Of a DNA stretch of 64,000 bases, positions 1,366 to 64,000 are shown piece after piece. This stretch comes from Acidobacteriota bacterium (GTDB taxonomy: Bacteria > Acidobacteriota > UBA890 > WLXD01), in NCBI GenBank assembly GCA_965205505.1, contig CBDBHB010000009.1:480001-544000 (forward strand), written 5' to 3'. Made by a program: the position numbers and the translations under genes. The notes beneath the pieces were generated by a model. That model ran no database searches. It saw only the letters and a list, made by a program, of their open reading frames with translations, and was not told the origin of the DNA. Within the stretch, counting starts at the first letter, position 1; every line of letters starts with the position of its first letter.

Positions 1366-3044
<1,679 letters not shown>

Positions 3045-36768: not shown

Positions 36769-37107
36769 ATGGGCAAGAAGGGCTATCTAGGGGAGTTTGA
36801 GCACATCGTCTTGTTGGCGCTAGTGCGTCTCCACGGTGAGGCCGCTGGCCGAGCCATCTACGAGGAGATCGACCGGCTGGCCAGCACTTCGGTGGCCATC
36901 ACGGCGGTTTATGTGACCCTCTCGCGGCTCGAAAAGAAGAGCTATGTCTCCGCGAAGCTCTCCGCGCCCACCCCCGTGCGCGGCGGGCGAGCCACCAAGA
37001 ACTTTCGGATCGAGGCCGCCGGCCTGGCGGCGCTGCGGCGCTCACGCCAACAGCTCGAACGGTTCTGGGATGGGGTCGAGATCGGCTCCGAGGCCGAAGG
37101 TCGATGA
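36769..37107 (+). CDS. PadR family regulator
   Basis: LGEFEHIVLLAL..AVYVTLSRLEKK..PTPVRGGR. Confidence 0.88.
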   Translation: MGKKGYLGEFEHIVLLALVRLHGEAAGRAIYEEIDRLASTSVAITAVYVTLSRLEKKSYVSAKLSAPTPVRGGRATKNFRIEAAGLAALRRSRQQLERFWDGVEIGSEAEGR

Positions 37108-48541: not shown

Positions 48542-49294
48542 GTGATGGCTGAAGACTGCGAAGAGCTCGTGGCGATCATTGCGGCGAGGGAGGACGAGCT
48601 CGTGCCGCTGCGCGAGCGTGTACTAGTTTCCGAGGAAATCAAGGACGGGCCCCGCTACTACGTACGAGGCACGTTGCGCGGCGTGCAGGTCGTACTCGCG
48701 GTGACCGGCGATGGCAAGCGTAACGCCGATCTCGGAATCCGACGGTTGATCCAGGTGTGCGCGCCGACGCGCGTCCTGGCGGTCGGGATGGGAGGTGCGC
48801 TATCGGCGGACCTTGCGGTTGGCGACCTGGTGGTTTCCAGCGAGGTGATGGAGGGAGAACGCACGCTGGCCTGTCCGGATCTGCAGTGGCTGGAGGAGGC
48901 GTCGCTTCATCTGGACTATGACCTCGGGCGGCTGGTTACCGTCGACGAGATACTGGCGACGCCATCCAGCAAGTCGGAGTGGTACGGAAGGACATGGCGC
49001 GATCAGCCCGCTGCCGCTGATATGGAGTCAGCCTGCTTCGCCAGGGTGGCCGTGGCCTACAAGCTTCCATACTTGATCGCGCGGGCTATCAGCGACGCCG
49101 CCAACGAGGTGCTGCCAGACTACCTTGAGGACTGCCGTGCGCAGGACGGCAGCATCGACAAGCGGCAGGTGTTTTGGAAGACAGTCTGGCGACCACGCTC
49201 GTGGGGCAGCATCGTACGCTTGCGCTCGCGCATGCGGCGGTGCGCTAGCACACTGGCCGATTTCGCCGAAGGGCTCGTTGCCGCATTGGCGTAG
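48542..49294 (+). CDS. Nucleoside phosphorylase/nucleosidase, HpnG-like
   Basis: GMGGAL..L.VGDLVV, ADMES, RAISD, C-terminal DG.....WRP helix typical of hopanoid-associated phosphorylases. Confidence 0.75.
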   Translation: MMAEDCEELVAIIAAREDELVPLRERVLVSEEIKDGPRYYVRGTLRGVQVVLAVTGDGKRNADLGIRRLIQVCAPTRVLAVGMGGALSADLAVGDLVVSSEVMEGERTLACPDLQWLEEASLHLDYDLGRLVTVDEILATPSSKSEWYGRTWRDQPAAADMESACFARVAVAYKLPYLIARAISDAANEVLPDYLEDCRAQDGSIDKRQVFWKTVWRPRSWGSIVRLRSRMRRCASTLADFAEGLVAALA

Positions 49295-49363: not shown

Positions 49364-49471
49364 GGACACTCGGAACCCTACGCCCTCAGTGCGCTGCGCT
49401 GGTCTTGAACGCCGCGCGCCCGCCTCTCGTGCGTCGCTATTGCCGGCGCCGATGCCGCGTTGCGAGTACGC

Positions 49472-50518
49472 ATGAGCAGTACCGATTCACCGGCCGCCAA
49501 GCCACCGGCGGCGCGCGACCGCAAGGCCGAGCACATCCAACTGGCGCTCGAAGAGCGAATGCAACACGGCAGTCGCGGCTTCGATGCCTGGCAGCTCGAG
49601 CATTGCGCGCTTCCCGAGCTCGACCTGGCCGAGGTCGACCTCAGCACCGAATTCCTCGGCAAGCAGCTGATGGCGCCGCTGCTTATCTCCTGCATGACCG
49701 GTGGCACCGCTGACGCGGCCGGGATCAACCGCAACCTGGCAGTCGGGGCCGAGCGTGCGGGTGTTGCGGTTGGCGTGGGGTCGCAGCGCAAGGCGCTGGA
49801 GGATCCTACGCTCCAAGCTACCTTCCAGGTTCGCGAGCACGCCCCCACGGTACCCCTGTTGGCCAATCTGGGTGCGGTGCAACTGAACTGCGGGTACGGC
49901 GTCGCCGAGTGTCGGGCGGCCGTTCGTATGATCGATGCGGACGCTCTCGTGTTGCACCTGAACCCTCTGCAGGAGGCAATTCAGCCCGAGGGCGATGTCA
50001 ACTTCGCCAACCTGTTGCCCAAGATCGAAGCGATTGTTCATCAACTCGAGGTGCCGGTCATCGTCAAGGAGATCGGCATGGGCATATCGCTGTCGGTGGC
50101 CGAGCGGCTCGCCGAAGCCGGCGTCCGTATCATCGACACGGCGGGACATGGGGGCACCAACTGGGCCCGTATCGAAGCACAGCGTGCCGACGATCTCGAG
50201 CTCGGCGCGATGTTCGCCGACTGGGGAATTCCAACGCCCGACAGCATCCGCGCCGTCGCCAGCGTGCCGGGAGTCACCGTTATTGGCAGCGGCGGGGTCC
50301 GTACTGGAATCGACGTGGCCAAGGCGGTAGCGCTCGGCGCTGACATGGTCGGCCTGGCGTATCCGTTCCTCAAAGCGGCCCTGGAGTCGGCCGATGCGGT
50401 GGTGGCGCGGATCGACCGTACTCTGACCGAGCTCAGGGTGTCGATGTTCTGCGCCGGCATCCGTACAATGGCCGATCTGCGTGCGGCGAATCTGACCGAC
50501 CGAGCGCCCCGCCGATGA
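49472..50518 (+). CDS. fni: Type 2 isopentenyl-diphosphate isomerase
   Basis: RKAEHI, MTGG, GVGSQR, HLNPLQEAIQPEGD, VKEIG.G, GGTNW, WGIPT. Confidence 0.95.
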   Translation: MSSTDSPAAKPPAARDRKAEHIQLALEERMQHGSRGFDAWQLEHCALPELDLAEVDLSTEFLGKQLMAPLLISCMTGGTADAAGINRNLAVGAERAGVAVGVGSQRKALEDPTLQATFQVREHAPTVPLLANLGAVQLNCGYGVAECRAAVRMIDADALVLHLNPLQEAIQPEGDVNFANLLPKIEAIVHQLEVPVIVKEIGMGISLSVAERLAEAGVRIIDTAGHGGTNWARIEAQRADDLELGAMFADWGIPTPDSIRAVASVPGVTVIGSGGVRTGIDVAKAVALGADMVGLAYPFLKAALESADAVVARIDRTLTELRVSMFCAGIRTMADLRAANLTDRAPRR

Positions 50519-51762
50519 ACGACACGGCCGAGCCGGTCGACCAGGACGCCCTCGTCGACGAGATTGCAGCCGGTACCCGGCGCTTTCATCAGCTGCCGCC
50601 CGAGCTCAGCGCTGCTGATGCAGCAGCCATTCGACGGCAGGCCCTCGAGCGCCTCGCCGGAGCAACTCTGACACACACCGGCAAGTACTCGTTCGACGCG
50701 ACGCGCGCCGCCGGCAGCCATTGCGAGAATCTGATCGGTGTGACACAGGTGCCGGTCGGCATAGCAGGGCCACTGCTCGTGCGGGGTGATTACGTCGACG
50801 GTGAGGTCTATGTCCCTCTGGCCACGACGGAGGGAGCGCTCGTCGCCAGCATAAACCGAGGCTGTGCGGCCATCCGGGCCGCTGGCGGGGCCACCGTGTA
50901 TGTGGAGGACGTCGGCATGACCCGGGCGCCGGTGTTTCGCTCCAGCGGGCTGGCGCAGACACGTGAATTCCTCCGGTGGGTTACCGACAACGAGGATGAG
51001 ATCCGCTCCGTGGCAGAGGGCACGAGCCGTTTCCTGCAGCTCGTGGATATCCGCCCCTATGCTTTCGGTACCACGATCTTCCTGCGCTTCAGGTTCCGCT
51101 CAGGCGACGCGATGGGAATGAACATGGCAACCATCGCCTGCGATCAGCTAGTACGCGAGCTGATCGAGCCAGCGACCGGCGTGCGTTGCGTCGCTCTTTC
51201 CGGAAACTACTGTACCGACAAGAAGCCCGCAGCGATCAACTTTCAGGAAGGCCGCGGCAAGCGCATACATGCGCAGGTCAGACTCGACGCCGATGTGCTG
51301 GCGCGCCTGAAGACGAGCTCGGCCGAGCTGCTCGAGGTGCAGTACCGCAAGAACCTGCTGGGCTCGATCGCTGCCGGTTCGATAGGTTTCAACGCCCACG
51401 TCGCCAATGTCCTCGCGGCAGTGTTTCTCGCCACTGGGCAGGATCCGGCACACGTAGTGGAAGGGTCGATGGGAATCACCTCCATCGAGCCTGGCGACGA
51501 GGGTGGCGTGGTGGCATCGATGTACCTGCCTGCTGTCCCGCTGGCGGCGATCGGCGGTGGTACTGCGCTCGATACGCAACGCGAGGCGCTCGCTTTGCTC
51601 GGCGTCGCGCCGGAGCCGGACCGGCCTGGCGTCGCGGTGTTGCGATTGGCCGAGATCCTCGGCGCCGCCGTTCTCGCAGGCGAGCTGTCGCTGCTGGCCG
51701 CCCTTACCTCTCAGGACCTCGCCGGCGCCCACAAGCGGCTGGGGCGCGCCCAGGCCGGCTAG
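50515..51762 (+). CDS. hmgA: HMG-CoA reductase, class I (NADPH, archaeal/eukaryote-like)
   Basis: CENLIG, PLATTEGALVAS, GDAMGMNM, GNYCTDKK, GQDPAH, GELSLL..H. Confidence 0.93.
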   Translation: MNDTAEPVDQDALVDEIAAGTRRFHQLPPELSAADAAAIRRQALERLAGATLTHTGKYSFDATRAAGSHCENLIGVTQVPVGIAGPLLVRGDYVDGEVYVPLATTEGALVASINRGCAAIRAAGGATVYVEDVGMTRAPVFRSSGLAQTREFLRWVTDNEDEIRSVAEGTSRFLQLVDIRPYAFGTTIFLRFRFRSGDAMGMNMATIACDQLVRELIEPATGVRCVALSGNYCTDKKPAAINFQEGRGKRIHAQVRLDADVLARLKTSSAELLEVQYRKNLLGSIAAGSIGFNAHVANVLAAVFLATGQDPAHVVEGSMGITSIEPGDEGGVVASMYLPAVPLAAIGGGTALDTQREALALLGVAPEPDRPGVAVLRLAEILGAAVLAGELSLLAALTSQDLAGAHKRLGRAQAG

Positions 51763-51774
51763 GCGGTCACACCG

Positions 51775-52893
51775 ATGGATGCAGCGCGGTCGCTCGAACG
51801 GCGCTTGCTAGCACGCGTTTCAGTGCCTGGAAAGCTCATCCTCATGGGTGAACATGCCGTCGTCTACGGTCGACCGGCGCTGGTGGCCGCCACCAGCCTG
51901 CGCCTACGGATCGACCTGTACCGCAGCCACCGGGCCGGCGTGGAAGTGGAGCTGCCGGAGCTCCAGTACCAAGACCATGTCTCGTGGCAGGAGATCCTGC
52001 GTTATGCGAGCCGAATGCGGCAACGGTGGGAACGCTACGATGCGAGCCCGACGCCCGAGGTGTTCGCTAGCCTTCAGGACGACCGCGCCGACCGGCTGGT
52101 GCTGCTCGCACTGGGCGAGGCCATCACGGCGCTGGGTGAGGATCCGGGCGCGAAGGGCCATCCGCTGAGCGCGCTGCGGCTTCGGGTGGACTCGGCGGTG
52201 CCGATGCAGGCCGGCTTCGGGAGCTCCGCCGCCATCGCTGTGGCGGTGGTGACGGCGGTTTGTGCGCTCTTCGGCCGGGCGGAGAGGTGGTCGCTGATCG
52301 GGCCGATCGCGGGCGAGGTGGAGCGCCGGCAGCATGGCGCGCCGTCTGGTGTAGACGTCGCGACCGTGTTTCACGGCGGCATGTTGCGCGCCCGCCGCGC
52401 CGGCGAAGAGCTATCGATCGAGCCGCTGGCGGCGCGCCCTGACACCCTGCGGCGGCTGCGCCTCTTCGATACGGGTCGCTCGGCCGAGCCGACCGGCACG
52501 GTGGTCGCGGCAGTACGAGCACAGCATGACCTTCACCCAGGCAGCTTCGAGGAGTCGTTGGACGCCGCCGAAACCGCAACCCTGGCCTTCCAGGCTGCGG
52601 TTACCGCCTCGGCCGACCGGATCGACTTAGTGCCACCGATCCGCGATGCTCAGCGCTACCTGGAGTCTCTCGGGGTGGTGCCCGAGCCAGTATGCGACGC
52701 TGTCCGCGCTATCGAAGCGCTGGGTGGCGCTGCCAAAATCTCTGGTTCGGGTTCGCTCGCAGGTCCAGGGGCCGGGTCCTTGTTGGTACTGCTGCCGGAT
52801 GGCATCGAGAATCTCCCCGAGCCGCTGGCGAGGTTTCCGGAGCACGAAGTGTCGCTGGGCGCCGAGGGTGTGTGGGTAGAGGTGGTGTCATGA
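51775..52893 (+). CDS. mvk: Mevalonate kinase
   Basis: PGKLILMGEHAVVYG, PMQAGFGSSAA, HGAPSGVD, AKISGSG. Confidence 0.9.
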   Translation: MDAARSLERRLLARVSVPGKLILMGEHAVVYGRPALVAATSLRLRIDLYRSHRAGVEVELPELQYQDHVSWQEILRYASRMRQRWERYDASPTPEVFASLQDDRADRLVLLALGEAITALGEDPGAKGHPLSALRLRVDSAVPMQAGFGSSAAIAVAVVTAVCALFGRAERWSLIGPIAGEVERRQHGAPSGVDVATVFHGGMLRARRAGEELSIEPLAARPDTLRRLRLFDTGRSAEPTGTVVAAVRAQHDLHPGSFEESLDAAETATLAFQAAVTASADRIDLVPPIRDAQRYLESLGVVPEPVCDAVRAIEALGGAAKISGSGSLAGPGAGSLLVLLPDGIENLPEPLARFPEHEVSLGAEGVWVEVVS

Positions 52894-53915
52894 GTCGCAG
52901 CGCCACCGTCGAAGCACCTTCCAATATTGCGTTTGTGAAGTACTGGGGTGCCGCTGACCTGGAGAAGGCCATCCCACTCAACGCCTCGATCTCGATGTCG
53001 TTGCGGGCGTGCGTTACAAGGACGAGCGTCGAGACGCTCGCGGCCGGCGCCGACGACGAGATCTGGATATGTGTCGAGGGTCAATGGCGTCGCGCCGAAG
53101 GGGCGTTCGAGCATCGCGCCGCAGCGCATCTGGAGGGTATGCGGCGCTGGGCCAAAGTCGACGTGGGTTTTAGGGTTGCCACGGAGAACAGCTTTCCCGC
53201 CGCCGCCGGTATTGCCTCGTCGGCTTCCGGCTTTGCGGCACTTACCATGGCAGTGCTGGCGGCGCTCGAGCGAGAGCCGGCGGGCGATGAGCTATCGAAT
53301 CTGGCGCGGTTGTCTGGCTCGGGCTCCGCATCGCGGTCGGTTTTCGGCGGCTACGTGCAGTGGCCGCACGGCGACGAGGCGGACCCGTGGCGCGCCGCGC
53401 CGCTGGCGACAGCCTCGCATTGGGACCTGCGCGACGTAATCGCCATTGTGCAGACCGGTCCCAAGGCAGTGTCGTCTCTCGAGGGGCACGCCGGTGCCAC
53501 CACCAGCCCCCATTTCGCGCGCCGGCAGGAGCTGATCCCGTCGCGACTTCAACGGGTGCGCGACGCCATCGCGGCGCGCGACCTGGACCGACTCGGTCCG
53601 GTCGTCGAAGAAGACGCAATTGAGCTCCACCTGGTAGCGATGTCCTCGCAGCCCCCGATCTTCTACTGGCGGCCGGCGACGCTTCGCGTGCTGGACCATG
53701 TTCGCGTTCTGCGCAACGGCGGCACGTCGGCGTGGGCAACGATGGACGCCGGGGCGAACGTGCATGTGATTTGCTCTGCCGATGACGAGGAGGACGTCGC
53801 CGCCGGGCTGGAGGCGCTGGATGGTGTCCAAGCCGTGATCCGCGACGGCGTGGGCTCGGGCCCGCGGGCCCTGCCGGTATCGTTGTTCGACGCTCTCGAT
53901 CGAGCGCGACCGTGA
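52890..53915 (+). CDS. mvaD: MvaD-family decarboxylase, probably phosphomevalonate decarboxylase
   Basis: NIAFVKYWG, NSFP.AAGIASSASG, GSGSASRS, VSS, TMDAGANVH; substrate inferred from the adjacent IPK. Confidence 0.88.
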   Translation: MSRSATVEAPSNIAFVKYWGAADLEKAIPLNASISMSLRACVTRTSVETLAAGADDEIWICVEGQWRRAEGAFEHRAAAHLEGMRRWAKVDVGFRVATENSFPAAAGIASSASGFAALTMAVLAALEREPAGDELSNLARLSGSGSASRSVFGGYVQWPHGDEADPWRAAPLATASHWDLRDVIAIVQTGPKAVSSLEGHAGATTSPHFARRQELIPSRLQRVRDAIAARDLDRLGPVVEEDAIELHLVAMSSQPPIFYWRPATLRVLDHVRVLRNGGTSAWATMDAGANVHVICSADDEEDVAAGLEALDGVQAVIRDGVGSGPRALPVSLFDALDRARP

Positions 53916-54712
53916 ACGATCTGGTGGTGATCAAGCTGGGCGGCAGCTTGATCACCCACAAGCGCCGCCATCGAACGGTAAGGCGGGCTGAGCTTTCGCG
54001 ACTCGCCGGCGAGATCGCGGCGCTGACCCGCGGCTCTCGATTCCCGGTGCTGCTAGGGCACGGCAGCGGGTCCTTCGGGCACGTCGCGGCAGCGCAGTCG
54101 GGCGTCCATGAGGGGATGGCCGGGCGTGGCGCGCGGGTCGGTGTTTCGCAGACGCAGGCTGCCGCTTCCGAGCTGCACGCGATTGTCATGAGCGCTCTGC
54201 GTGAGGCCGGCGTGGCTGCCTACTCGGTGGCTCCGTCGAGCGCCATTGTTGCCCGAGGCCCCGGTCTTCGGCCGAGCGTGCACCTGGAGCCAGTGCGGCG
54301 AGCGCTCGACAGTGGACTGCTACCCGTTATGTATGGCGACATCGTCATGGACCGGCAACGTGGCTGTTCGATCTGCTCCACCGAAACGGCACTGCTTGCA
54401 TTCGCTCGCTCGCTAGGCTCGTCGAATCGGTGTGTCTCCGATGCCATCTGGCTCGGAGACACCGACGGCATTCTTGATGGAGATGGGGTGAGCGTTGCTC
54501 GCGTCCGCTTGCGAGATGCCAGGCGCGTCCGTCGCCTGGTGAGCGGCGCGGCCGCGACCGATGTGACCGGCGGCATGCGCCATCGCCTCGAGGCTGCGTT
54601 GGCGCTAGCCCGCATCGGCGTGCGGTCCTATCTGCTCGATGGCCGTCGGCCGGGCATCCTGCGACGTGCGCTGCGAGGCGCCACGGTGCCGGGGACGATC
54701 GTCGAGCCCTGA
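53912..54712 (+). CDS. ipk: Isopentenyl phosphate kinase
   Basis: KLGGSLIT.K, HGSGSFGH signature histidine, GDIV, STE, DVTGGM. Confidence 0.88.
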   Translation: MNDLVVIKLGGSLITHKRRHRTVRRAELSRLAGEIAALTRGSRFPVLLGHGSGSFGHVAAAQSGVHEGMAGRGARVGVSQTQAAASELHAIVMSALREAGVAAYSVAPSSAIVARGPGLRPSVHLEPVRRALDSGLLPVMYGDIVMDRQRGCSICSTETALLAFARSLGSSNRCVSDAIWLGDTDGILDGDGVSVARVRLRDARRVRRLVSGAAATDVTGGMRHRLEAALALARIGVRSYLLDGRRPGILRRALRGATVPGTIVEP

Positions 54713-54793
54713 GCAGCGGCGGCTTTCGTCGCCTGGGCCGCGCCGCCGCCAAGGTGGATAATGGTCCTCGGCCAGCCAAAGCCAGGCGCACGC

Positions 54794-55714
54794 ATGGACC
54801 GCATCGAAGACCTTCTCGAGAAGACCAGCCGCACGTTCGCGCTATCGATCCCGTTGCTGCCGGAGCCGACCCGCCGCGAGCTCGGGATCGCCTACCTGCT
54901 ATTCCGCATTGCGGACACCTTCGAGGATGCGTCCGAATGGGGCCGACAGCGGCGGATCGATGCCCTCGAGGAGTTCATGAGCCTGGTTCGACATCCAGAC
55001 GAGCAGCGAGCCGCGAAGCTCGGACGCAGCTGGGCCACTTCCGTACCGATTGATCATCCCGGCTATCTCGAGCTACTCCGCGAATCGGCAACCGTGATCC
55101 GGGAGTACCAGCGTCTGCAGCCTGGCGCACGGGGGATCATCCGCAAGCACACGTTGCGGACCGCTGCCGGCATGGCCGGATTCGTCAATCGCTCTGTCGA
55201 TGGTGTGCTCAAGCTCGAGTCTCTAGCTGACCTACGCGAGTATTGTTACGTGGTTGCCGGTATTGTCGGTGAGCTCAGCACCGACTTGTTCCTTCTCGAG
55301 CGCCCGCAGCTGGCGTCGTCGATCGAGTTCTTGCAACAGCGCGCTGCGCGGTTTGGTGAGGCGCTGCAGCTGGTCAACATCCTCAAGGATGCTGCCGACG
55401 ACCGGCGTGAGGGGCGGTGTTACCTGCCCGCGGCGCTGAAGCGCAGGGAGATCTTCCGGTTGGCCCATGAAGATCTCCGAGTAGCGGCGCACTACACCAA
55501 CGCACTGCAGGCGGCGAGCGCGCCGCGCGGCATCATCGCGTTCTGCGCCCTGCCGACACGGCTTGCCGTCGTTGCCCTCGACGTCGTCGAGCGATGCGGG
55601 CCCGGCGCAAAGATCTCCCGCGAAGAGGTTGCCGAGATCGTCCAGGCCATGAACCTAGATCTCGAGGCCGGTGCTCCAGCGGTGCCGATTCCAGCAACCG
55701 CGAAACCGACGTGA
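54794..55714 (+). CDS. Squalene synthase-like head-to-head prenyltransferase
   Basis: TSRTFALSI, YLLFRIADTFED, YCYVVAGIVGE, LQLVNILKD..D..EGRCYLP. Confidence 0.88.
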   Translation: MDRIEDLLEKTSRTFALSIPLLPEPTRRELGIAYLLFRIADTFEDASEWGRQRRIDALEEFMSLVRHPDEQRAAKLGRSWATSVPIDHPGYLELLRESATVIREYQRLQPGARGIIRKHTLRTAAGMAGFVNRSVDGVLKLESLADLREYCYVVAGIVGELSTDLFLLERPQLASSIEFLQQRAARFGEALQLVNILKDAADDRREGRCYLPAALKRREIFRLAHEDLRVAAHYTNALQAASAPRGIIAFCALPTRLAVVALDVVERCGPGAKISREEVAEIVQAMNLDLEAGAPAVPIPATAKPT

Positions 55715-55743
55715 CCAAGCCGGCGGCTGGCGCGGTTGCGAGA

Positions 55744-56565
55744 TCATTTTCCGGCGCCTTCGGGGTTAGCTCTCGTGGCGCGGTCGATCCAGGCGTCGGC
55801 GTCCGGATGGCCGCGTTGCTGCCATTCCCGGGCTCGATCGATGGTCCGCCGATAAGCGTCGCGGCTTGCCGCGTCGTCTTCGACTTCGGCGTAGGCCTCG
55901 GCTAGCGCGAGGAGGTTTGGCGGGTACTCGGGGTAGAGCTCGACGGCCCGTTGCGCCTGCTCCAGGCCCTCGTCCGCGTTGCCGGGACCGGTGGGCCAAC
56001 CGGGCGCTTGCACCAGCATCTGCGATAGCACGCGTCGGGGTCCGGCGTAGTCGAGGCGTTCGTGCCCGGCGATGGCAGCGCGGAGCTCGCGTTCCATTAT
56101 GCGTAGCCCGTCCGAAGCCGTGGCGCGACGCTGGTTGGCTTGTACGCCGATGGCGATCGCCAGCCAGTAATGACAGTCCGGGTTTGTTGGCTCCCGTCTT
56201 CGACACCACTGGGCTGTTTGCACTGCCTCGGTGGCCTTGTCCCTGCGTGCCTGCGGATCGTCCAGATGCTCCCCAAGCCAGGTCTGTGCCCTCACGGCAC
56301 CGATGACTGCCAGCGCGCTGGACGGACGGGCGATGGCAGATCGGATCCAAAGAGCCTCGGCCTGGCGCACCGCGTCGACATTGGGGCGTCGCCCGAATTC
56401 TCCCTCGGCGTCGGCCGCCAGACGGGCAGCCTCCTGCGCGTCGACGCGTTCCGGATCGACGTGGCCGAGCGCCGAACTCGTGTCAAGCGGCTGGAGTGCA
56501 GCGGCACACGCGGACGAAGTAAGGGCTGCGGCAGCTAGCAAGGCGGCGCCACGACGAAGCCTCAT
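55744..56565 (-). CDS. TPR-like lipoprotein (TatT/BstC-like)
   Basis: Lipobox TSSAC; helical repeats, HYWLAIAIG, DYAGPRRVL..L.QAPGWP. Confidence 0.7.
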   Translation of the reverse strand: MRLRRGAALLAAAALTSSACAAALQPLDTSSALGHVDPERVDAQEAARLAADAEGEFGRRPNVDAVRQAEALWIRSAIARPSSALAVIGAVRAQTWLGEHLDDPQARRDKATEAVQTAQWCRRREPTNPDCHYWLAIAIGVQANQRRATASDGLRIMERELRAAIAGHERLDYAGPRRVLSQMLVQAPGWPTGPGNADEGLEQAQRAVELYPEYPPNLLALAEAYAEVEDDAASRDAYRRTIDRAREWQQRGHPDADAWIDRATRANPEGAGK

Positions 56566-57455
56566 TGAGCCGCCGAGTATGCCGCCCGGGCAAGGCCCAG
56601 CGCCTCAGCGTCCAGGGCTTCGAAGCGCTGTAGCTGCATGGTTTCGAGCACGTCAGCGAAGCTCGCCGACTCGTGGACACCGAGTAGCCCCTTGACCAGC
56701 TGCTGGCGCACCGGCTCGGGGACGCGGTCGCCCAGGGCGACGACGAGCCAGGCCAAGAGAGGCGGCGACGTTGCCACCACCTCGAGCGACTCCGCGCCCG
56801 GAAACGAAGCCAACGCGGCGGTCTGGGGGCCATCGAGAAGTACGGCAACTTCCTCGCCGGCGGCCACTCGGCGTATGCCGGCAAGCACCCGCCGCGTGAA
56901 CTTGACCGAAAGCGAATCCGGGAGCGCTCCCCAATCCGCCAGCGCCGGCCCGCGTACGAAACTGGGTGCGTATGCCGGAAGCCCTAATAGCTCCCAGCCA
57001 GCGAGCGACTCGGGCCCGGTGATCACCCCGGCGGAAGCCACCAGGCTCCAACGCTCGGTAGCGCTCCCGGACGCCTGCACCGCCTGCGCCACCGCGGTGA
57101 GCGCCAGCTCCTGCTCGTACTTCAGATACAAGGGCAGTGGCACCAGCGCCAACGACGTGGCGTTGTCGCGTAGACGACTCACCCCGGCTTCCTCGCTCGG
57201 ATGGTATTCGGCCGTCAAGGTCCCTGCCGGCCACCCGGAGGCGTCCGAGACCATCGCCGCGAAATCGTTCATCGTCGGCTGCGCCTGCTCGGTGTTGCTC
57301 GGATACCCTGGCGCGCAGGCCACCAGCCGCAGAGTGTCCAGGCCGGCGAATGCGCCACCCCGACTCCCGCCGCCGGCCGGCGGTACAGTTGCCGTCGTTG
57401 CAAACAGCGCCACCGCGAAGAGAAGCTTGTTCATCGTCGGCGCGGATCCGTTCAC
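56562..57455 (-). CDS. Periplasmic substrate-binding protein (PhnD-like/BstB-like)
   Basis: Signal peptide; LVACAPGYP.., two alpha/beta lobes; stop overlaps the start of the downstream lipoprotein (ATGA). Confidence 0.65.
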   Translation of the reverse strand: MNGSAPTMNKLLFAVALFATTATVPPAGGGSRGGAFAGLDTLRLVACAPGYPSNTEQAQPTMNDFAAMVSDASGWPAGTLTAEYHPSEEAGVSRLRDNATSLALVPLPLYLKYEQELALTAVAQAVQASGSATERWSLVASAGVITGPESLAGWELLGLPAYAPSFVRGPALADWGALPDSLSVKFTRRVLAGIRRVAAGEEVAVLLDGPQTAALASFPGAESLEVVATSPPLLAWLVVALGDRVPEPVRQQLVKGLLGVHESASFADVLETMQLQRFEALDAEALGLARAAYSAAQ

Positions 57456-57502
57456 CTGTGGCGAAGGTTGTCAGTAGTCTTCGAAAGAATACCCGCGACC
57501 CT

Positions 57503-60196
57503 TCAGCGGCGCGCGATCCCGCTCACGATCAGCAGGTTCGGCAGCACGATCAAGGCGGCGATCGTGCAAGCGCCGACCCCCAGCAACAGCAGGGCCCCGA
57601 GGCTCGCCATGCCACGATGTGTAGCGAACACGAGGCTCCCGAATCCCACCATGGTCGTAAGCGAAGCGATGAGGATCGCCCGCCCGGTATGCGAAACGAC
57701 CGTCATGATGCCGGCGCTGCCCTCCAGTCGCAGTCGGTGGATGATGTGGACTCCGGCATCGATGCCAACACCCAGGACGATCGGTACCGCCACCAGGTTG
57801 GCGAAATTGAACGACAGGCCGAGTGCCCACATGAGTCCGAGCATCCATACCGTCCCGAAGAAGACGGGTACGAGTGCCAGGGCCGTGTGTTGCGTGTTAC
57901 GCAGATCCAGTAGCAACACCAGGAACACGAGCAACGCGGCGCTCGCGAATGCTAGCCCGAACCCCGAGGTGATCAAGGCAGAATGGCTCTCGAAAAGCAC
58001 CGGAAAGCCGATGGCATTGCTGGCGACGCGGCGCGACGCGACGTTGAACTGTCCCAGGAAGCCGGTGTCATAGATGTCGCCCGCCGGGAACAGATAGCCG
58101 ACGTATCGACCGTCCTCGGTCATGAACCGATCGACGATCTCGGAAGGCAAGGATGCGCGGGTCGGGAGCGGCACGCTGGCGGCGTCGCGCAGCTGCTGTA
58201 GGGCGCTGAACGCCACGACGCGCAGCGCCTCCTGCGCTTCGGCCCACTCGGCGAGCCTCTCCGGGCTCGCCGCCATCGCTAGCTCGATGGCTCCTGCGGT
58301 CGCCTGACGGGCCTTCTCCAGGGCTCCGGACACCCCTCCCAGCCCGGCAACGAATGCGTCGTCGGCGGCGGTGGCGAGGGCAGACTCGAGTCGCAACAGC
58401 GAGTCACTCAGTCGGCGCCCGTCGAACGCGGCCACGGTCAGCTCGATGACTTCCAGAGTCCTACGGGCGCGCGCCGCGGCGGCCTCCGACGCGAGCGGTT
58501 GATCGGGCAGGAATGTGAGTATCGATTCGAACCGACGGATGCTGGCCTCGTCCTCGGCGCGCGAGCGTAGCGCGCGGAGCTGCTCCAGATCCTCGGCGAC
58601 GACGAGGTTGAAGTCGTGGCTGAGCGCCGACTCGTCGTTGATGATCTCCAGATAATGGATTGACTCGGAACCTGCCGGGAGAAGCTCTAGCAGGCTCGGC
58701 TCCAGCTCCACGCGGCTCGCTGCGAGCCCGGCGATCGCGGTCAGGCCGATCGCCAGCGCGACGACGAGGCCCGGTGACGCGCAGACCCAACGGGCCGCCC
58801 GATCGTCCCAGATCTGGTCAACGGCGGCACGCGCTGCCGCGTTGTCGTGTTCGGGGGCACCGCGCAACAGCAGCAGTGCCGGTAGCACTAGCAGGGCGGC
58901 AAGCAGGCACAGCAGCACGCCGACGCTGGTAACCAGGCCCAGCTGGGAAAAACCACGAAAATCCATGAGCAGCAGACAGGCGAACGCGGCCGAGGTGGTG
59001 AACGCAGACGCGACGACCGCGGCACTCGTCGTTCGAAGCGTGGCGCGCACGGCCTCCCGGCGACCCTTGTTCTGCCGTTCGAGCTCGTACTGCGATAGGG
59101 GGTGCACTGCGTAGTCGATACCCATGCCGACGAGAATGGGGATCAGTGCCGTGGTGATGATGTTGAGCGACCCGATCTCCAGCTGCACCGCGCCAATCGA
59201 CCAGGTGACTCCGGCCGCCAGGGTCGCCAGGCCGAGCAGAGCGTGGCGTCGCCGGCGGAACACCAGCAACGAGATTCCGAGCACGCCGACGATGGCGATC
59301 AACGAGGTGCGGCGGGTGTCCCGTCCTATGGCATTCATCTCTTCCACGGCCATCGCGGCCGGGCCGGTGAGTCCATAGCGAACGCCTGCACGCTCCGACA
59401 ACACGGCCGCGACGGCCACCCGGACGCTATCCACCAGCGCCCGCTGAGCTTCCAGGCTGTCATCGAAATACGCAGGGCTGACCAGTACGAACACGACACG
59501 CTCATCGCTGGTCGACAGGTAGCCATCGCCGGTCAACGATCCGCGCCGCCCGCTGTCTATCAGCATTAGCGGCACCTGCTTCAGCCGATCGACAAACCCA
59601 TGAGGATCGGTGAGGAAGTCGCGCTCGGCGTCGACGAGGTCGAGCAGCCAGGCGGCCGCTACGGCGGCATCGTCGGACGGCAAGACACTGCCTGATTCGA
59701 GCGAATCCTCGATGTCAGTGGCGCTGCGCAGGTTCAGATCGGCCCAGCTCGTCAGGATCAGCTTGCCGTCGACGGCAAGTAGCCGCTGCACCATCTCGAA
59801 CGCTTGTTCGACCATGTCCGCCGGTGCCAGGGCAAGCGCATGATCGGCAAGCCAATCGAAGTCGACGCGGTAGAACACGCTACGTACCTGCGGGTCCGCT
59901 TGCAGGTGCTCGGCGATCTCGCGTGCTGTGGTTTCCAGGTCCTCGACCGATACGCCGCTTGCGCTTGCTTCCAGCGCGATAATGAGCGGCTCGGCGCTGG
60001 CGAACTGTGAGCGCAGCGAGTTCCATCGCGCCTGGCTCACGTCATCTTCCGGCACCAGCTCTTGTCGGGAGGTCAGAAGCTCGATTCCCGTCCCCAGCCA
60101 AATGGAGATCGCGCCCAGCGCTAGAGCGACGGTAAGCACGGCGCGTGGATGGTCCAGAACCAGCGACTCGGCGCGCCTGAGCACAAGGCGTATCAT
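57503..60196 (-). CDS. MMPL/RND lipid transporter (HpnN/BstA-like)
   Basis: 897 aa, two MMPL halves: LTG, ILVGMGIDYAVH, FSQLG, IVLGVGIDAGVH, TTMVGFGSL..HRGMASLG. Confidence 0.9.
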   Translation of the reverse strand: MIRLVLRRAESLVLDHPRAVLTVALALGAISIWLGTGIELLTSRQELVPEDDVSQARWNSLRSQFASAEPLIIALEASASGVSVEDLETTAREIAEHLQADPQVRSVFYRVDFDWLADHALALAPADMVEQAFEMVQRLLAVDGKLILTSWADLNLRSATDIEDSLESGSVLPSDDAAVAAAWLLDLVDAERDFLTDPHGFVDRLKQVPLMLIDSGRRGSLTGDGYLSTSDERVVFVLVSPAYFDDSLEAQRALVDSVRVAVAAVLSERAGVRYGLTGPAAMAVEEMNAIGRDTRRTSLIAIVGVLGISLLVFRRRRHALLGLATLAAGVTWSIGAVQLEIGSLNIITTALIPILVGMGIDYAVHPLSQYELERQNKGRREAVRATLRTTSAAVVASAFTTSAAFACLLLMDFRGFSQLGLVTSVGVLLCLLAALLVLPALLLLRGAPEHDNAAARAAVDQIWDDRAARWVCASPGLVVALAIGLTAIAGLAASRVELEPSLLELLPAGSESIHYLEIINDESALSHDFNLVVAEDLEQLRALRSRAEDEASIRRFESILTFLPDQPLASEAAAARARRTLEVIELTVAAFDGRRLSDSLLRLESALATAADDAFVAGLGGVSGALEKARQATAGAIELAMAASPERLAEWAEAQEALRVVAFSALQQLRDAASVPLPTRASLPSEIVDRFMTEDGRYVGYLFPAGDIYDTGFLGQFNVASRRVASNAIGFPVLFESHSALITSGFGLAFASAALLVFLVLLLDLRNTQHTALALVPVFFGTVWMLGLMWALGLSFNFANLVAVPIVLGVGIDAGVHIIHRLRLEGSAGIMTVVSHTGRAILIASLTTMVGFGSLVFATHRGMASLGALLLLGVGACTIAALIVLPNLLIVSGIARR

Positions 60197-60326
60197 GCGC
60201 GGCAGTCTACCGAATGCGGCTGGCGGCGACTGGCGAGCGAAGAGCGCGCAACCGGCACTATGCCGTGTCCACGAGCACCTGTAGCATCGCTCACCTGGCC
60301 AGCCCCGCCGCTCTTGCGAGAATGCC

Positions 60327-61286
60327 GTGAAGTCACTGATCCTGACCCAGTCCGATATTCACTCCGTGGTGAAGATGAGCGCCGTAGTGCCCGCGATCGA
60401 GGCAGCGTTCGAAGCGCACGGGCGCGGCGAAACGCAAATGCCGGTCAAGGTCTACCTCGATCTACCTGAGTACCACGGCGACTTCCGGGCCATGCCCGCC
60501 TACCTGGACGGATCGGCGGGGGTGAAGTGGGTCAACTCGCACCCGCGGAACCCGGAGGACCACGGGTTGCCATCGGTTCTCGGCATGTACATTCTCAGCG
60601 ACCCGTCCACTGCTGTGCCGTTGGCGGTCATGGATGCAACGCTGCTGACCGCGCTGCGCACCGGCGCGGCTGCGGCTGTCGCCGCCAAGCACCTGGCGCG
60701 GCCGGATGCCCGCACCGTCGGCTTCGTCGGCTGTGGCGTGCAGGCGCGTGCGCTGCTCGACGCACTACGCGTTGTTTTCGGCAATCTACAGATCGTGGCT
60801 GCCGATCAACACCCCGACGCGGCTGCTACTTTTGCCGCTGAGATTGGCGGAACTGTCGGCGACGTGGCGGATGCGTCAGGCTGCGACATCGTCTGCACCG
60901 CAACCCCTTCGCGCACACCGATCGTGCGTCACGAGTGGGTTAAGCCGGGCACACACATCAATGCCGTGGGTGCCGATGCGCACGGCAAACAGGAGCTCGA
61001 GTCGAGCCTGATGACGGCCGCCAAGGTGGTCATTGACGACTGGCAGCAGGCCTGTGAGAGCGGCGAGGTGAACGTGCCCTTGCACGAAGGCTCGCTTGCT
61101 CGAGACGACATTCACGCCGCCCTGGGGGAGATTGTTGCGGGGTTGGCGCCGGGCCGCGAGACGGATGACGAGATTACGGTATTCGATTCCACCGGGCTCG
61201 CCGTGCAAGACGTCGCGTTGGCACGCCTGGTATACGAACAAGCCCGCGCCGCCGAGGTCGGTCTGGAGGTCGATTTTCTCGGCTAA
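60327..61286 (+). CDS. Ornithine cyclodeaminase/mu-crystallin family (archaeal alanine dehydrogenase-like)
   Basis: GDFRAMPA, GVKWVNSHP.N, TALRTGAA, GCGVQA, FDSTGLAVQD. Confidence 0.9.
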   Translation: MKSLILTQSDIHSVVKMSAVVPAIEAAFEAHGRGETQMPVKVYLDLPEYHGDFRAMPAYLDGSAGVKWVNSHPRNPEDHGLPSVLGMYILSDPSTAVPLAVMDATLLTALRTGAAAAVAAKHLARPDARTVGFVGCGVQARALLDALRVVFGNLQIVAADQHPDAAATFAAEIGGTVGDVADASGCDIVCTATPSRTPIVRHEWVKPGTHINAVGADAHGKQELESSLMTAAKVVIDDWQQACESGEVNVPLHEGSLARDDIHAALGEIVAGLAPGRETDDEITVFDSTGLAVQDVALARLVYEQARAAEVGLEVDFLG

Positions 61287-61307
61287 CAGGCCGTGGTGAA
61301 AGTGTGG
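61283..61307 (+). repeat. Solo family B terminus CTAACAGGCCGTGGTGAAAGTGTGG overlapping the TAA stop
   Basis: Two mismatches to 36636-36660. Confidence 0.75.
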
Positions 61308-61361
61308 TGGGGGCCGGCCGTACAGGTGGACCCGGCGCGTACCCATACGAGTGAAGGAGCG

Positions 61362-62492
61362 ATGGCCATGAAAACGCGCGGATTTCAACCGACCAGCCGG
61401 TGGTTTGCCCTGTTGCTGCTCGTCGCCACGGCATGCGGGCCGACGACCGTCGCTGCTCCGGCAGCGATGCAGTACGCGCAGCTGCATCACTCCGAGTACG
61501 GAGCCGCCATCGAGGCTGCGCGCGCTGTTGTTCAGGAGCGCCTGCTCGAGTACCCCGGACTGTCGATCGCCGTTGGAATCGACGACCGGATCGTCTGGGC
61601 AGAGGGATTCGGCTGGGCCGATATCGAGCAGCGTGTTCCGGTGCGACCCACGTCTCGGTTTCGCGTCGGCAGCGTCGCCAAGCCGATGACCGCGTCGCTT
61701 CTCGGCCTGCTCTACGAGGAAGGCAAGATCGATCTCGACGCGCCGGTGCAGACGTACGTGCGGACGTTTCCAGAGAAGAGCCACCCGATCTCTACGCGCC
61801 TGCTCGCCGAGCACCTGGCCGGCATTCGCGACTACGAAGGCGACGAGTTCCTCAGTGCCGTTCGCTACGACACCGTGTCGGATGGGCTGGAAATCTTCGC
61901 TGCCGACCCGTTGCGGTTCGAGCCGAGCACCGAGTACTTGTACTCGAGCTACGGATGGAACCTGATCAGCGCCATCATCGAGGGTGAGAGCGGCGAGGAG
62001 TTTCTATCGCAAATGCAGAGCCGCGTATTCGAGCCGCTCGGCATGCTCGACACAACTTCGGATCAGAATGCCTTGATTGTCCGCGAGCGGGTACGACCTT
62101 ATGAGCGCGGGGATGACGGACTCCTGTACAACGCCCCTCATGTCGACAACAGCTACAAGTGGGCCGGCGGGGGCTTTCTCTCTACTGCACAGGACCTCGT
62201 GCGCTTCGGTATGGCGCACATGAAGCCCGGCTTCTTGCAGATGGCGACCCTGCAGGAGTGGCAGACGTCGCAGCGAACGAACGATGGCGTGGAGACCGGC
62301 TACGGAATGGGTTGGAGCGTTGGCACGGACGCGTCGGGCCGCCGAAGCGTCGGTCACGGCGGCGGCTCGGTGGGTGGAACCACCGGGCTCATGCTGCTGC
62401 CGGATGACTGCTTGGTGATTGCCATCACCAGCAACATGAGCGGCGCGCCAGGTTTTCCCACTCAGGAAATCGTCGATCTGTTCCTGCAGTAG
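61362..62492 (+). CDS. Serine hydrolase, beta-lactamase family lipoprotein
   Basis: GAAGGAG RBS; lipobox VATAC; SVAK (SxxK), YSS, HGG. Confidence 0.9.
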   Translation: MAMKTRGFQPTSRWFALLLLVATACGPTTVAAPAAMQYAQLHHSEYGAAIEAARAVVQERLLEYPGLSIAVGIDDRIVWAEGFGWADIEQRVPVRPTSRFRVGSVAKPMTASLLGLLYEEGKIDLDAPVQTYVRTFPEKSHPISTRLLAEHLAGIRDYEGDEFLSAVRYDTVSDGLEIFAADPLRFEPSTEYLYSSYGWNLISAIIEGESGEEFLSQMQSRVFEPLGMLDTTSDQNALIVRERVRPYERGDDGLLYNAPHVDNSYKWAGGGFLSTAQDLVRFGMAHMKPGFLQMATLQEWQTSQRTNDGVETGYGMGWSVGTDASGRRSVGHGGGSVGGTTGLMLLPDDCLVIAITSNMSGAPGFPTQEIVDLFLQ

Positions 62493-62656
62493 CCGCCGCG
62501 ATCATGGCTGATCCCGAGGTCGGCTACGTCGTTCCGGCAGAAAATGCTGGAAAAACAGCAAATGCTCTTGATCGTCTCCGCGAAAATGCTAGATTTGCAG
62601 CAGTTTCAGCGCGCCATCGAGCGCGCACCCGCCCGATTCCCCTCGTGGCTTTCAGC

Positions 62657-63043
62657 GTGGCCGGCCGATCTCACGACCATTTGACGCGGCGCGAGCGTCA
62701 GATCATGGACGTCGTCTTTCGAACGGGGAGCGCCACGGCCGCGGAGATCCACGCGGAGATGCCGGATCCGCCGAGCTACTCTGCCGTGCGCGCCGCCCTT
62801 CGGGTGCTCGAGCAGAAGGGGCACCTGCGCCACGAACGTCGCAGTCATCACTACGTGTTCTGGCCAACCGTCTCGCGGCGCTCGGCGCAGCAGGATGCGG
62901 CACGCCGGCTGCTGACGACGTTCTTCGAGGGTTCCGCGAGCGGTGCGGTGGCGGCGCTGCTCGAGTGTGCCGACGATCTCCCTGACGAGGAGATCGAGGA
63001 ACTGCGAAAGATGATCGCCGTGGCGCGGCGCGAGGGTCGCTGA
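62657..63043 (+). CDS. BlaI/MecI/CopY family repressor (start approximate)
   Basis: LTRRERQIMD, PSYSAVRAALRVLEQKG, TFFEGS. Confidence 0.9.
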   Translation: MAGRSHDHLTRRERQIMDVVFRTGSATAAEIHAEMPDPPSYSAVRAALRVLEQKGHLRHERRSHHYVFWPTVSRRSAQQDAARRLLTTFFEGSASGAVAALLECADDLPDEEIEELRKMIAVARREGR

Positions 63044-63044
63044 G

Positions 63045-64000
63045 ATGTTCCTGCTGGCCGATCTGACCGTCAAGGCAACGGTGGTGCTGGCTACCACTGC
63101 TGGTATCGTCTGGGCGATGCGTCGCAGCTCGTCCGGAGCCCGAGCTTTGGTCTGGAGCTGCGGGATCGTGGCGGTACTGGCGCTGCCGGTGGTGTCGGCG
63201 CTGGTTCCAGCCTGGCAGATTCCGCTGCTCCCGGCGTCGGCGATCGCGAGCCCGTCAGCCGGCCCACTGGCGGCAGTGCCGCCCGGGGAGGCATCGCGCT
63301 TGCAGAAGCCTCCCGAGCTGTTGAGGGCGACGCTACATGGTGCCGGCGAAGCGCTTCGGCCCGATACCCCATCGGAGCCCGCACGGCGCGCCGCACTGAT
63401 TGGCCTGCGTGCTACCGGCGTGGACGGAGCACCGCCAACCGAGGGTGAGCAGGCACATCGCGGAGAGCTCCTTCTGGTGGCGTGGGCCACCGGCGCCGTA
63501 CTGCTGCTTGGGCAGCTGCTTGCTGGGCTCGCTCGAGTCGCCTGGATCGATCGCCGGGCTTGCCCGGTGACCAACGGGCCACTCCACTCGCGTCTGCGCA
63601 GTGCGGCGCGGCGCCTCGGCATCCGGCAGCGCGTGATCTTGCTCGAGAGCGACGCGATCGCGGTACCGGTGACCTGGCAGCTATTCCATCCGCGTGTGCT
63701 CGTGCCGCGTGGAATGCAGAGCTGGTCCGCGGACTGTCAGACCGCTGTGCTGTTGCACGAGCTCGCGCACGTGCGTCGCCGCGACTACGGCACGCAGCTG
63801 GCCGCGCATCTTGCCGTCACGCTCTACTGGTTCAACCCCTTGGTCTGGCTGGCGCGCCGCGGCCTGTACAGCGAGCGCGAGCACGCCTGCGACGACGCCG
63901 TGCTACACGCCGGTGTCAGACCGTCGACGTACGCCGCCCATCTTGTCGAGGTGGCGCGGTCGGTGCGACAGGACCCGCAGCCGAGCGTCGCCATCGCGCT
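63045..64000 (+). CDS. M56 family metallopeptidase (BlaR1-like), partial, runs off the right edge
   Basis: ATG 63045, TM segments, in-frame LLHELAHVRRRD, YWFNPLVW, EREHACDD. Confidence 0.9.
   Translation, partial: MFLLADLTVKATVVLATTAGIVWAMRRSSSGARALVWSCGIVAVLALPVVSALVPAWQIPLLPASAIASPSAGPLAAVPPGEASRLQKPPELLRATLHGAGEALRPDTPSEPARRAALIGLRATGVDGAPPTEGEQAHRGELLLVAWATGAVLLLGQLLAGLARVAWIDRRACPVTNGPLHSRLRSAARRLGIRQRVILLESDAIAVPVTWQLFHPRVLVPRGMQSWSADCQTAVLLHELAHVRRRDYGTQLAAHLAVTLYWFNPLVWLARRGLYSEREHACDDAVLHAGVRPSTYAAHLVEVARSVRQDPQPSVAIA

Follow-up and report, generated by a model that had tools for sequence, protein, structure and literature searches.

A BstABC-related three-gene locus from an acidobacterium as a candidate relay for membrane lipids

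Introduction

How do bacteria outside the proteobacteria carry hopanoids and other non-phospholipid lipids across the periplasm? Passages of a recent preprint present this as an open question (bioRxiv 10.1101/2025.07.29.667474), and a locus in a 64-kb stretch of Acidobacteriota DNA (contig CBDBHB010000009.1; 'the window' denotes this whole stretch) raises it in concrete form. Three open reading frames (ORFs), all on the minus strand, fill positions 55744-60196 of the window exactly. An original prediction made from the sequence alone had described them, in order, as genes for an RND transporter, a secreted binding-protein-like protein and a coupled TPR lipoprotein. It had proposed, on grounds of architecture, that their products are homologous to BstA, BstB and BstC of Methylococcus capsulatus (Zhai et al., eLife 2024; PMC10942540; PDB 7T1M and 7T1S), and that they carry either sterols or a different triterpenoid.

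BstABC is the sole described bacterial system of such a design. In passages of the paper that reported it, BstB and BstC each form a small, isolated cluster, with 16 and 13 members that come mostly from Methylococcaceae, and the abstract states only in general terms that 'similar transporters' are widespread (PMC10942540). Our literature search, with preprint supplements and subscription journals outside its scope, found no account of a family that combines an RND pump with BstB-like and BstC-like proteins in Acidobacteriota, Steroidobacteraceae or Myxococcota. The analysis reported here leads us to favor, at a probability of roughly 55%, an inner-to-outer-membrane relay for an endogenous isoprenoid lipid that is homologous to BstABC.

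Results

Three adjacent minus-strand genes

The gene order given by the original prediction holds for the three ORFs, which are listed here in the direction of transcription.

57503-60196, minus strand: P0001, RND/MMPL (HAE3-type) inner-membrane transporter of the HpnN/BstA subtype, 897 aa
56562-57455, minus strand: P0002, BstB-like candidate for a secreted periplasmic lipid carrier with a PhnD fold, 297 aa from a GTG start
55744-56565, minus strand: P0003, BstC-like lipoprotein with a TPR-like (TatT/RMD-type) fold, 273 aa

Going by its relatives, P0002 likely starts at the ATG at 57434 (M8), eight codons past the GTG. Depending on which of these starts is used, the gap between the P0001 and P0002 genes is ~47-68 bp. 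The P0002 and P0003 genes share a four-base overlap (ATGA), which suggests translational coupling, as had been claimed for the lipoprotein gene. A single operon is the best explanation for this arrangement, and it would be the minimal three-gene form of the module described below. The hidden Markov model E-values and high-confidence folds reported in the next section set the three genes far apart from chance ORFs. A promoter and terminator scan of positions 55500-60500 returned one promoter-like and two terminator-like sites, a yield not above that from shuffled sequences, and no hairpin terminator was called in the 29-bp gap between the P0003 gene and its convergent neighbor. Rfam at gathering thresholds and a tRNA scan found nothing in the whole window.

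The three proteins are related to BstA, BstB and BstC

The pump P0001 matches the Pfam family MMPL (4.3e-34). Its N-terminal part consists of one hydrophobic segment, a ~255-aa loop and a hydrophobic block at residues 295-443, and its C-terminal part consists of a segment at 476-494, a ~250-aa loop and a second hydrophobic block at 745-884. As read from the sequence, these blocks and loops are an RND layout with two large periplasmic domains. With NCBIfam scores serving as a proxy in place of a tree, P0001 falls with HpnN and BstA. Its top score is to HpnN TIGR03480 (372.5 bits, 3.9e-111, under the cut-off of 751.85), followed by BstA NF045600 (350.2 bits, 2.1e-104), and a further HpnN model, NF052374, gives 233.4 bits and misses its cut-off of 1100. 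The BstA alignment extends over the full length of the protein (residues 13-887 to model positions 12-892 of 903), whereas HpnN aligns only from residue 229-235 onward. Among proteins of solved structure the best sequence match is HpnN (6wu0/5khn, ~1e-44). P0001 residues D361 and T847 align with D344 and T818 of HpnN, which are conserved charged or polar transmembrane residues; their roles were reportedly described by Kumar et al. in 2017.

P0002 carries a Sec-type signal peptide with no N-terminal cysteine or lipobox, a leader that fits a predicted periplasmic protein. Pfam assigns it to Phosphonate-bd (8.5e-11, 42 bits, over the gathering score), its sole NCBIfam match is BstB NF045601 (4.6e-18, 65.4 bits) and its sole match among PDB sequences is BstB (7t1m_A, 3.7e-9). 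An AlphaFold2 model of P0002, built on 108 relatives, has a mean confidence (pLDDT) of 92.0, and the first-ranked Foldseek match of this model is again 7t1m (E 1.1e-17, TM 0.83, root-mean-square deviation 3.0, 21% identity). The structures of ArrX, PtxB and PhnD trail it, with TM values of 0.64-0.75. Fused forms of the BstB-like protein longer than 520 aa were sought and none was found at E ≤1e-10, which is weak evidence.

The hydrophobic leader of P0003 ends in Cys20, and this column is Cys in 42 of 46 relatives, which marks the protein as a predicted lipoprotein. Its Pfam matches to TPR families are weak, all under their gathering scores, and its best NCBIfam match is BstC NF045602 (8.9e-23, 81 bits), as is its best match among PDB sequences (7t1s_A, 9.2e-16). 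The AlphaFold2 model, built on 46 relatives (pLDDT 92.6), has an all-helical TPR-like fold; the two chains of BstC (7t1s_B and 7t1s_A) rank first and second in Foldseek, with TM values of 0.75-0.76 and 26% identity, and the TPR lipid-transfer domain of PTPIP51 and TatT (8G52/8G53) rank after them. Relatives of P0003 bear PF21033, and PF16811 in some clusters; P0003 itself has no match to PF16811 at E ≤1. A complex prediction for P0002 (residues 38-297) and P0003 (residues 21-273), each with its own alignment, gave a score of 0.20 relative to a mark of 0.32 and counts neither way.

Residues were mapped onto BstB and BstC by hand, using phmmer alignments and the numbering of the eLife paper with offsets of +20 (BstB) and +14 (BstC), each verified on more than 10 residues. 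As given in passages of that paper, the domain-A cavity of BstB and its polar-head site, Glu118/Tyr120/Asn192, come from docking and molecular dynamics, and Glu86 of BstC contacts the sterol hydroxyl and is the sole residue whose mutation strongly cut sterol binding (PMC10942540). The docked polar-head site aligns with E134, W136 and D208 of P0002, in columns where 99 of the 108 relatives have E, all 108 have W and 102 have D. Judged by aligned residues, P0002 has a hydrophobic or small residue at each of the 13 mapped positions that line the cavity. In P0003, E99 aligns with Glu86, in a column where 18 of the 46 relatives have D, 16 have E and 7 have R. The A-P-x-W-P loop of BstC, which lies beside the cavity entrance, is invariant in all 46 relatives, as are Tyr121, Gly128 and Arg166. 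P0003 also has Cys121 and Cys131 (window ~56173-56205), each present in 45 of the 46 relatives and both absent from BstC at the aligned positions; the two may form a periplasmic disulphide specific to the subfamily.

Comparison with BstA, BstB, BstC and HpnN therefore places 7T1M, 7T1S and HpnN as the top matches of P0002, P0003 and P0001, respectively, and the homology once judged from architecture is now evident from NCBIfam, PDB sequence matches and Foldseek. The two small proteins do not lack the BstB and BstC folds, as 7T1M and 7T1S rank first in the fold searches. By these measures the three proteins are distant but genuine relatives of BstABC. They are not orthologues or equivalogs, because their scores lie far under the equivalog cut-offs (350 of 1400, 65 of 350 and 81 of 350 bits for BstA, BstB and BstC) and the two small proteins are only 21-26% identical to the solved BstB and BstC.

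Comparison with known systems

The window locus shares with BstABC the order of RND pump, secreted PhnD-fold protein and TatT-like lipoprotein, and its proteins keep the equivalents of Glu118 and Glu86, the A-P-x-W-P loop and several cavity residues. It differs from BstABC in having Trp in place of Tyr120, Asp in place of Asn192 and the additional Cys121/Cys131 pair, and in its setting, since the host is an acidobacterium with a mevalonate cluster and a squalene-synthase-like gene in place of sterol genes. The Bst genes co-localize with the sterol synthesis genes osc, smo and sdmA/sdmB, according to passages of the BstABC report (PMC10942540). No such co-localization was found within the window, where 50 ORFs were scanned with Pfam, a scope that applies to the gene content of the window throughout.

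HpnN, described from Burkholderia multivorans (5KHN/5KHS/6WU0) and Rhodopseudomonas palustris, is the best match of the pump among proteins of solved structure and gives its top NCBIfam score, and the pump keeps the residues that align with D344 and T818. The partners proposed for proteobacterial HpnN, in passages of the preprint, are HpnM (MlaC-like), HpnS (MlaA-like) or HpnT (lipocalin-like) (bioRxiv 10.1101/2025.07.29.667474). The window pump instead has PhnD-fold and TPR partners. It also has no shc or hpn genes within the window, and no SQHop_cyclase or hpnH-type gene of the neighborhood typical for HpnN was found there.

P0003 has in common with TatT/TPAT proteins (Tp0956; Es_TatT 8G52/8G53) and RMD/PTPIP51 (7CC7) an all-helical TPR-like fold with a central hydrophobic cavity, and TatT and PTPIP51 structures rank third, fourth and eighth in its fold search. 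However, P0003 is closer to BstC than to TatT or PTPIP51, no TRAP P/Q/M genes were found among the 50 scanned window ORFs, and Es_TatT binds long-chain fatty acids.

A larger family keeps the pair beside an RND pump

In word-based searches P0002 had 139 relatives and P0003 had 30, few of them named; the labels were from Acidobacteriota plus one from Saccharimonadales. A pattern scan from a nine-sequence alignment, with one genome per GTDB species, gave 239 loci with a BstB-like relative. All locus counts given below refer to the best 80 of the 239 loci (L001 and so on), each with up to 10 kb of flank. The Acidobacteriota among these 80 are Thermoanaerobaculia, Polarisedimenticolaceae, Vicinamibacterales and Holophagae, and the other hosts are Steroidobacteraceae and other Gammaproteobacteria, and Myxococcota.

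Of the 80 loci, 76 contain a BstC-like ORF, which usually comes immediately after the BstB-like gene, and an RND gene adjoins the pair in 74. Pump genes were identified by phmmer with five pump queries, as antisense ORFs in GC-rich DNA mask the genes when longest ORFs are picked. Their types and positions are as follows.

~900-aa HpnN/BstA-type pump, upstream on the same strand: 11 of 80 loci (3 cut by contig ends)
~900-aa HpnN/BstA-type pump, with fn3 and barrel genes between: 1 of 80 loci (L005)
~780-aa HAE3-type pump, divergent and directly upstream: 62 of 80 loci
Pump ambiguous: 2 of 80 loci (L013, L048)
Pump not seen: 4 of 80 loci, all at contig ends

The HAE3-type pumps match TIGR00921 (1e-33 to 1e-47) and reach just 27-84 bits on the HpnN and BstA models. 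The wider modules of Steroidobacteraceae, Thermoanaerobaculia and Myxococcota thus share with the window the BstB/BstC-like pair, its invariant motifs and an adjacent RND gene. They differ in the pump, which is of the divergent ~780-aa HAE3 type in 62 of the 80 loci, whereas the window and 11 others have the ~900-aa pump upstream on the same strand.

A BstC-like profile searched against 1.84 billion representatives gave 202 clusters (50% identity) at E ≤1e-30 and 2076 at ≤1e-10. When 148 of the best 150 clusters were scanned (two long multi-repeat proteins were omitted), none reached the BstC cut-off of 350 bits, and the maximum was 188.3. Judged in this way, the relay genes belong to a separate and larger subfamily, with Methylococcus BstBC outside its nearest 150 clusters. 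In a quick tree of 81 BstB-like proteins, for which SH-aLRT values are the only support, the window groups with L001 and L002 (SH-aLRT 100) and then with L003 and L004 (98). The same-strand HpnN/BstA-type loci all fall within one 16-row group (93).

In the sister clade, the BstC-like gene is followed by genes for an fn3-containing protein of 665-970 aa, a HEAT-repeat protein and a barrel that resembles TonB-dependent receptors (OMP_b-brl_4 plus CarboxypepD_reg). This extended form was observed in L005, L008, L010, L015, L017, L019, L032 and L072, with the HEAT-repeat protein in three loci, and it suggests a larger envelope machine in those lineages. A tblastn search (E <0.01) found no homologue of the fn3, barrel or HEAT protein, or of the HAE3-type pump, in the window. 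The window therefore holds the minimal three-gene form.

Several other neighbors of the module were noted. In Thermoanaerobaculia (L012, L014, L016 and L028), the pair is followed by a conserved protein of ~781 aa that has no Pfam or NCBIfam match. In Steroidobacteraceae, the module has MFS transporters, a phosphatidylethanolamine-binding protein and Ysc84 among its neighbors, and an operon lies near it in L074 (13752-19382, minus strand), L047 and L061 and directly downstream of the divergent pump in L066 (4119-7613). This operon encodes an Omp85-like protein, a nucleotidyltransferase, an HpnL-family protein that passes its cut-off (TIGR03476, 315.7 bits; cut-off 195.65) and a CDP-alcohol phosphatidyltransferase. 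The operons of L047, L061 and L074 add a Rieske oxygenase, for which the best match is SdmA at 139.6 bits versus a cut-off of 600. A tblastn search of the window with the SdmA-like protein from L074 found nothing.

Isoprenoid genes adjoin the locus

The genes that run toward the locus from the other side of the 29-bp gap are as follows.

48542-49294, plus strand: PNP_UDP_1 nucleosidase/phosphorylase of ambiguous type, at the head of the isoprenoid cluster
49460-50518, plus strand: type-2 isopentenyl diphosphate isomerase (IPP_isom_2, 396.2 bits, over cut-off)
50515-51762, plus strand: class-I HMG-CoA reductase (HMG_CoA_R_NADP, 444.4 bits, over cut-off)
51775-52893, plus strand: mevalonate kinase (132.3 bits, under the cut-off of 163)
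52692-53915, plus strand: mevalonate (di)phosphate decarboxylase (mevDPdecarb, 220.5 bits, over cut-off)
53912-54712, plus strand: isopentenyl phosphate kinase (IPPK_Arch, 153.2 bits, over cut-off)
54761-55714, plus strand: SQS_PSY head-to-head prenyl-diphosphate synthase, closest to squalene synthase, convergent with the P0003 gene and ending 29 bp from it

The synthase matches SQS_PSY in Pfam (3.2e-37), and its NCBIfam scores are led by squalene synthase TIGR01559 (94.3 bits), then HpnD (64 bits). Its best matches among PDB sequences are eukaryotic squalene synthases (~2e-11 over residues 18-235), with both Asp-rich motifs present, and the Atlas cluster closest to it is acidobacterial and labeled 'phytoene synthase family'. 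We considered a link to carotenoids but did not adopt it, as neither a desaturase nor any other crt gene was found in the 50 window ORFs. An orthologue of the synthase (62-86% identity) is adjacent and convergent in L001, L002 and L004 and lies ~9 kb off in L003; only the clade of the window and L001-L004 has a squalene-synthase-like gene close by.

The cluster at 49460-54712, which is syntenic in L001 and L002, has no phosphomevalonate kinase and no HMG-CoA synthase. From its gene content it looks like the alternative (archaeal/Chloroflexi-type) route via isopentenyl phosphate, here in an acidobacterium. The PNP_UDP_1 gene is the most conserved of the region, with 92-93% identity in L001 and L002. 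Its product scores under cut-off on every model matched, namely MTA/SAH nucleosidase (92.2 bits; cut-off 169), HpnG (89.7; cut-off 187.1) and futalosine hydrolase (59.9). The 50 ORFs yielded no gene for a cyclase, a squalene epoxidase or a Rieske oxygenase, and all window ORFs of at least 550 aa were assigned to other functions.

Other genes in the window

Two overlapping minus-strand ORFs at 40657-42438 (593 aa) and 42386-43324 (312 aa) both match MacB_PCD, and the first also matches FtsX. Together they have the length of the intact, duplicated MacB/FtsX permeases at 26639-29332 (897 aa) and 37104-39812 (902 aa); a frameshift or a sequencing error has probably split a single permease gene here. 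Insertion-sequence genes are present at 4792-5646 (minus strand; rve/HTH_21 integrase-type transposase) and 17682-18449 (plus strand; IS110-family transposase fragment). Tandem paralogous PQQ-type beta-propeller proteins of ~660 aa are encoded at 11911-13905 and 14040-16016 (minus strand), beside a class-V aminotransferase. At 61293-63998 (plus strand) lie genes for a serine beta-lactamase-fold protein, with all NCBIfam scores far under cut-off, then a BlaI-type repressor and a BlaR1/M56 sensor, the last of which runs past the window end.

Discussion

A candidate relay and its cargo

The conserved three-gene module, its homology to BstABC by sequence and fold and the secretion and lipoprotein signals of its two small proteins make a lipid relay of the BstABC type very probable. 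The direction of transport, the order of hand-over and the cargo are parts of the proposal that we infer. In the favored model, P0001 would use the proton gradient to extract a hydrophobic lipid from the inner membrane via its two periplasmic domains and would pass it to the soluble, bilobed P0002. In this carrier, the domain-A cavity would enclose the hydrophobic body of the lipid, and the conserved Glu-Trp-Asp site would hold its polar head. P0002 would then shuttle the lipid across the periplasm to the TPR lipoprotein P0003, which would be anchored in the outer membrane. The cargo would be made from the product of the adjoining squalene-synthase-like gene and the mevalonate cluster.

That the cargo is an isoprenoid or triterpenoid is a tentative assignment, which we place slightly below even odds. 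An isoprenoid lipid is favored because the pump belongs to the HpnN/BstA subtype, in contrast to the HAE3-type pumps of other family members, and because adjacency to the synthase gene is kept down to 51-58% identity of the BstB-like protein (L003 and L004). The polar Glu-Trp-Asp site favors an isoprenoid cargo whose head is polar. Such a cargo seems likelier to be of the hopanoid type, or otherwise derived from squalene, than to be a sterol. Hopanoids are obvious candidates, since squalene-hopene cyclase (SHC) is reported to be highly conserved in Acidobacteriota in passages of the preprint (bioRxiv 10.1101/2025.07.29.667474) and since HpnM/HpnS and HpnT are described for proteobacteria only. 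The different triterpenoid offered as the second option by the original prediction is thus plausible, the evidence for it being adjacency to the squalene-synthase-like gene and the mevalonate cluster.

Several observations weigh against an isoprenoid relay of this kind. P0001, P0002 and P0003 all miss the equivalog cut-offs of their Bst models, by 350.2 versus 1400, 65.4 versus 350 and 81 versus 350 bits. The synthase is far under the TIGR01559 cut-off of 286.75 and its C-terminal third (residues 236-317) does not align with squalene synthases, which keeps its assignment as a squalene synthase tentative. Neither a squalene-hopene nor an oxidosqualene cyclase (OSC) gene was found in the window, or among 79 neighbor ORFs of the related loci scanned with Pfam. 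The isoprenoid genes are convergent and not co-transcribed with the relay genes. Furthermore, an unrelated ornithine-cyclodeaminase gene is equally syntenic in L001-L003, so the adjacency may just reflect shared ancestry of the genomes. The related protein Es_TatT binds palmitate according to passages of a review (PMC11713862). Finally, the module lies near a phospholipid-head-group operon in some Steroidobacteraceae, and the family as a whole is not tied to triterpenoids, as its contexts outside the clade of the window differ.

Other readings of the locus

One rival reading is a general envelope-lipid transporter, carrying a phospholipid, fatty acid, aminolipid or other amphiphile, for which the isoprenoid adjacency would be inherited synteny without function. 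We regard this reading as a serious one that is nonetheless somewhat unlikely. An SQS_PSY orthologue is missing within 10 kb in 75 of the 80 related loci, and the neighbors of the module vary widely, from MFS transporters to the phosphatidylethanolamine-binding protein and Ysc84. In L066, the RND gene is directly followed by genes for a nucleotidyltransferase, a CDP-alcohol phosphatidyltransferase and a flippase-like protein of the HpnL family. The cyclodeaminase gene is as syntenic as the synthase gene, and the palmitate-binding TatT of Enhygromyxa (PMC11713862, in passages of that review) is among the fold matches of P0003 as 8g52/8g53. However, the window pump is distinctly an HpnN/BstA-type protein, with 372 and 350 bits on these models, versus the ~780-aa HAE3 type in the remainder of the family, the adjacency to the synthase persists at 51-58% BstB-like identity, and the solved structures closest to P0002 and P0003 are those of the sterol-binding proteins and not that of the fatty-acid binder. 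A true sterol transporter, in a host that makes or acquires sterols and with the trio functionally equal to BstABC, would account for homology to all three Bst proteins in the same gene order, for the equivalents of Glu86 (E99) and Glu118 (E134), for a synthase that best matches the eukaryote-type squalene synthases and for a mevalonate pathway. This version of the original prediction is not supported and we consider it improbable. The equivalog cut-offs are missed four- to fivefold, and the 148 relatives scanned from the BstC-like profile search all stay under the BstC cut-off (best 188 bits). Trp stands in place of Tyr120 and Asp in place of Asn192, without exception or almost so, in a family spread over lineages that are not known for sterols. 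The window has no osc, smo or sdmA/B and no cyclase gene, the same BstB/BstC-like pair is present in at least 239 species genomes, and the 79 neighbor ORFs scanned with Pfam include no sterol synthesis genes. In passages of two triterpenoid-cyclase surveys, moreover, Acidobacteria are placed under SHC, 'SHC-like' and other cyclase clades, not under OSC.

An uptake or retrograde system, which would move exogenous or outer-membrane lipid inward, is also an improbable reading, to which we give only slightly more credence than to sterol transport. NPC1 and other RND relatives carry sterol into a membrane, and the TonB-dependent-receptor-like barrel follows the sister-clade module in L005, L008, L015 (partial), L017, L019, L032 and L072. 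PhnD-fold binding proteins classically serve importers, as do TatT proteins according to passages of the review (PMC11713862). Nevertheless, the window holds no homologue of the barrel, fn3 or HEAT protein at tblastn E <0.01, there are no ABC or TRAP membrane components nearby, its neighbors are biosynthetic genes, and the closest characterized pumps (HpnN, and BstA as proposed) act outward. Lastly, P0002 might be what its Pfam family name suggests, a conventional ABC-importer component that binds phosphonate, phosphite or an oxyanion, with the three genes being unrelated neighbors. This possibility is close to negligible, even though Phosphonate-bd scores 42 bits, which exceeds the gathering score, and ArrX, PtxB and PhnD are strong fold matches. 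The sole NCBIfam match is BstB and the top fold match is 7T1M. No ABC permease or ATPase gene adjoins it, and the only ABC_tran protein of the window (1365-3044) is of the ABC-F type and 53 kb off. Its gene is coupled by ATGA to the BstC-like gene, and the pair is kept with an RND gene in nearly all 80 loci.

What the locus may mean for lipid export

The window leads to a family at least an order of magnitude larger than BstABC as it appears in print (239 loci; 202 clusters), which keeps the BstB/BstC-like pair and the RND pump together and which includes a divergent version in another phylum. 'BstABC-like' genes in metagenomes should not be read as evidence of bacterial sterol use, and the operon of the window is not evidence for sterols in Acidobacteriota.

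A bolder proposal, to which we give a minority chance in its full form, is that Acidobacteriota and at least 239 species in three phyla export membrane lipids by undescribed conveyors that consist of an RND pump, a PhnD-fold carrier and a TPR lipoprotein, with BstABC as one specialized offshoot. The HpnN/BstA-type version in the lineage of the window might then be the missing periplasmic route for hopanoid-type or squalene-derived lipids, replacing HpnM/HpnS or HpnT, and the Glu-Trp-Asp site might be the head-group reader that sets specificity. The window operon is a concrete, testable candidate for triterpenoid trafficking outside the proteobacteria.

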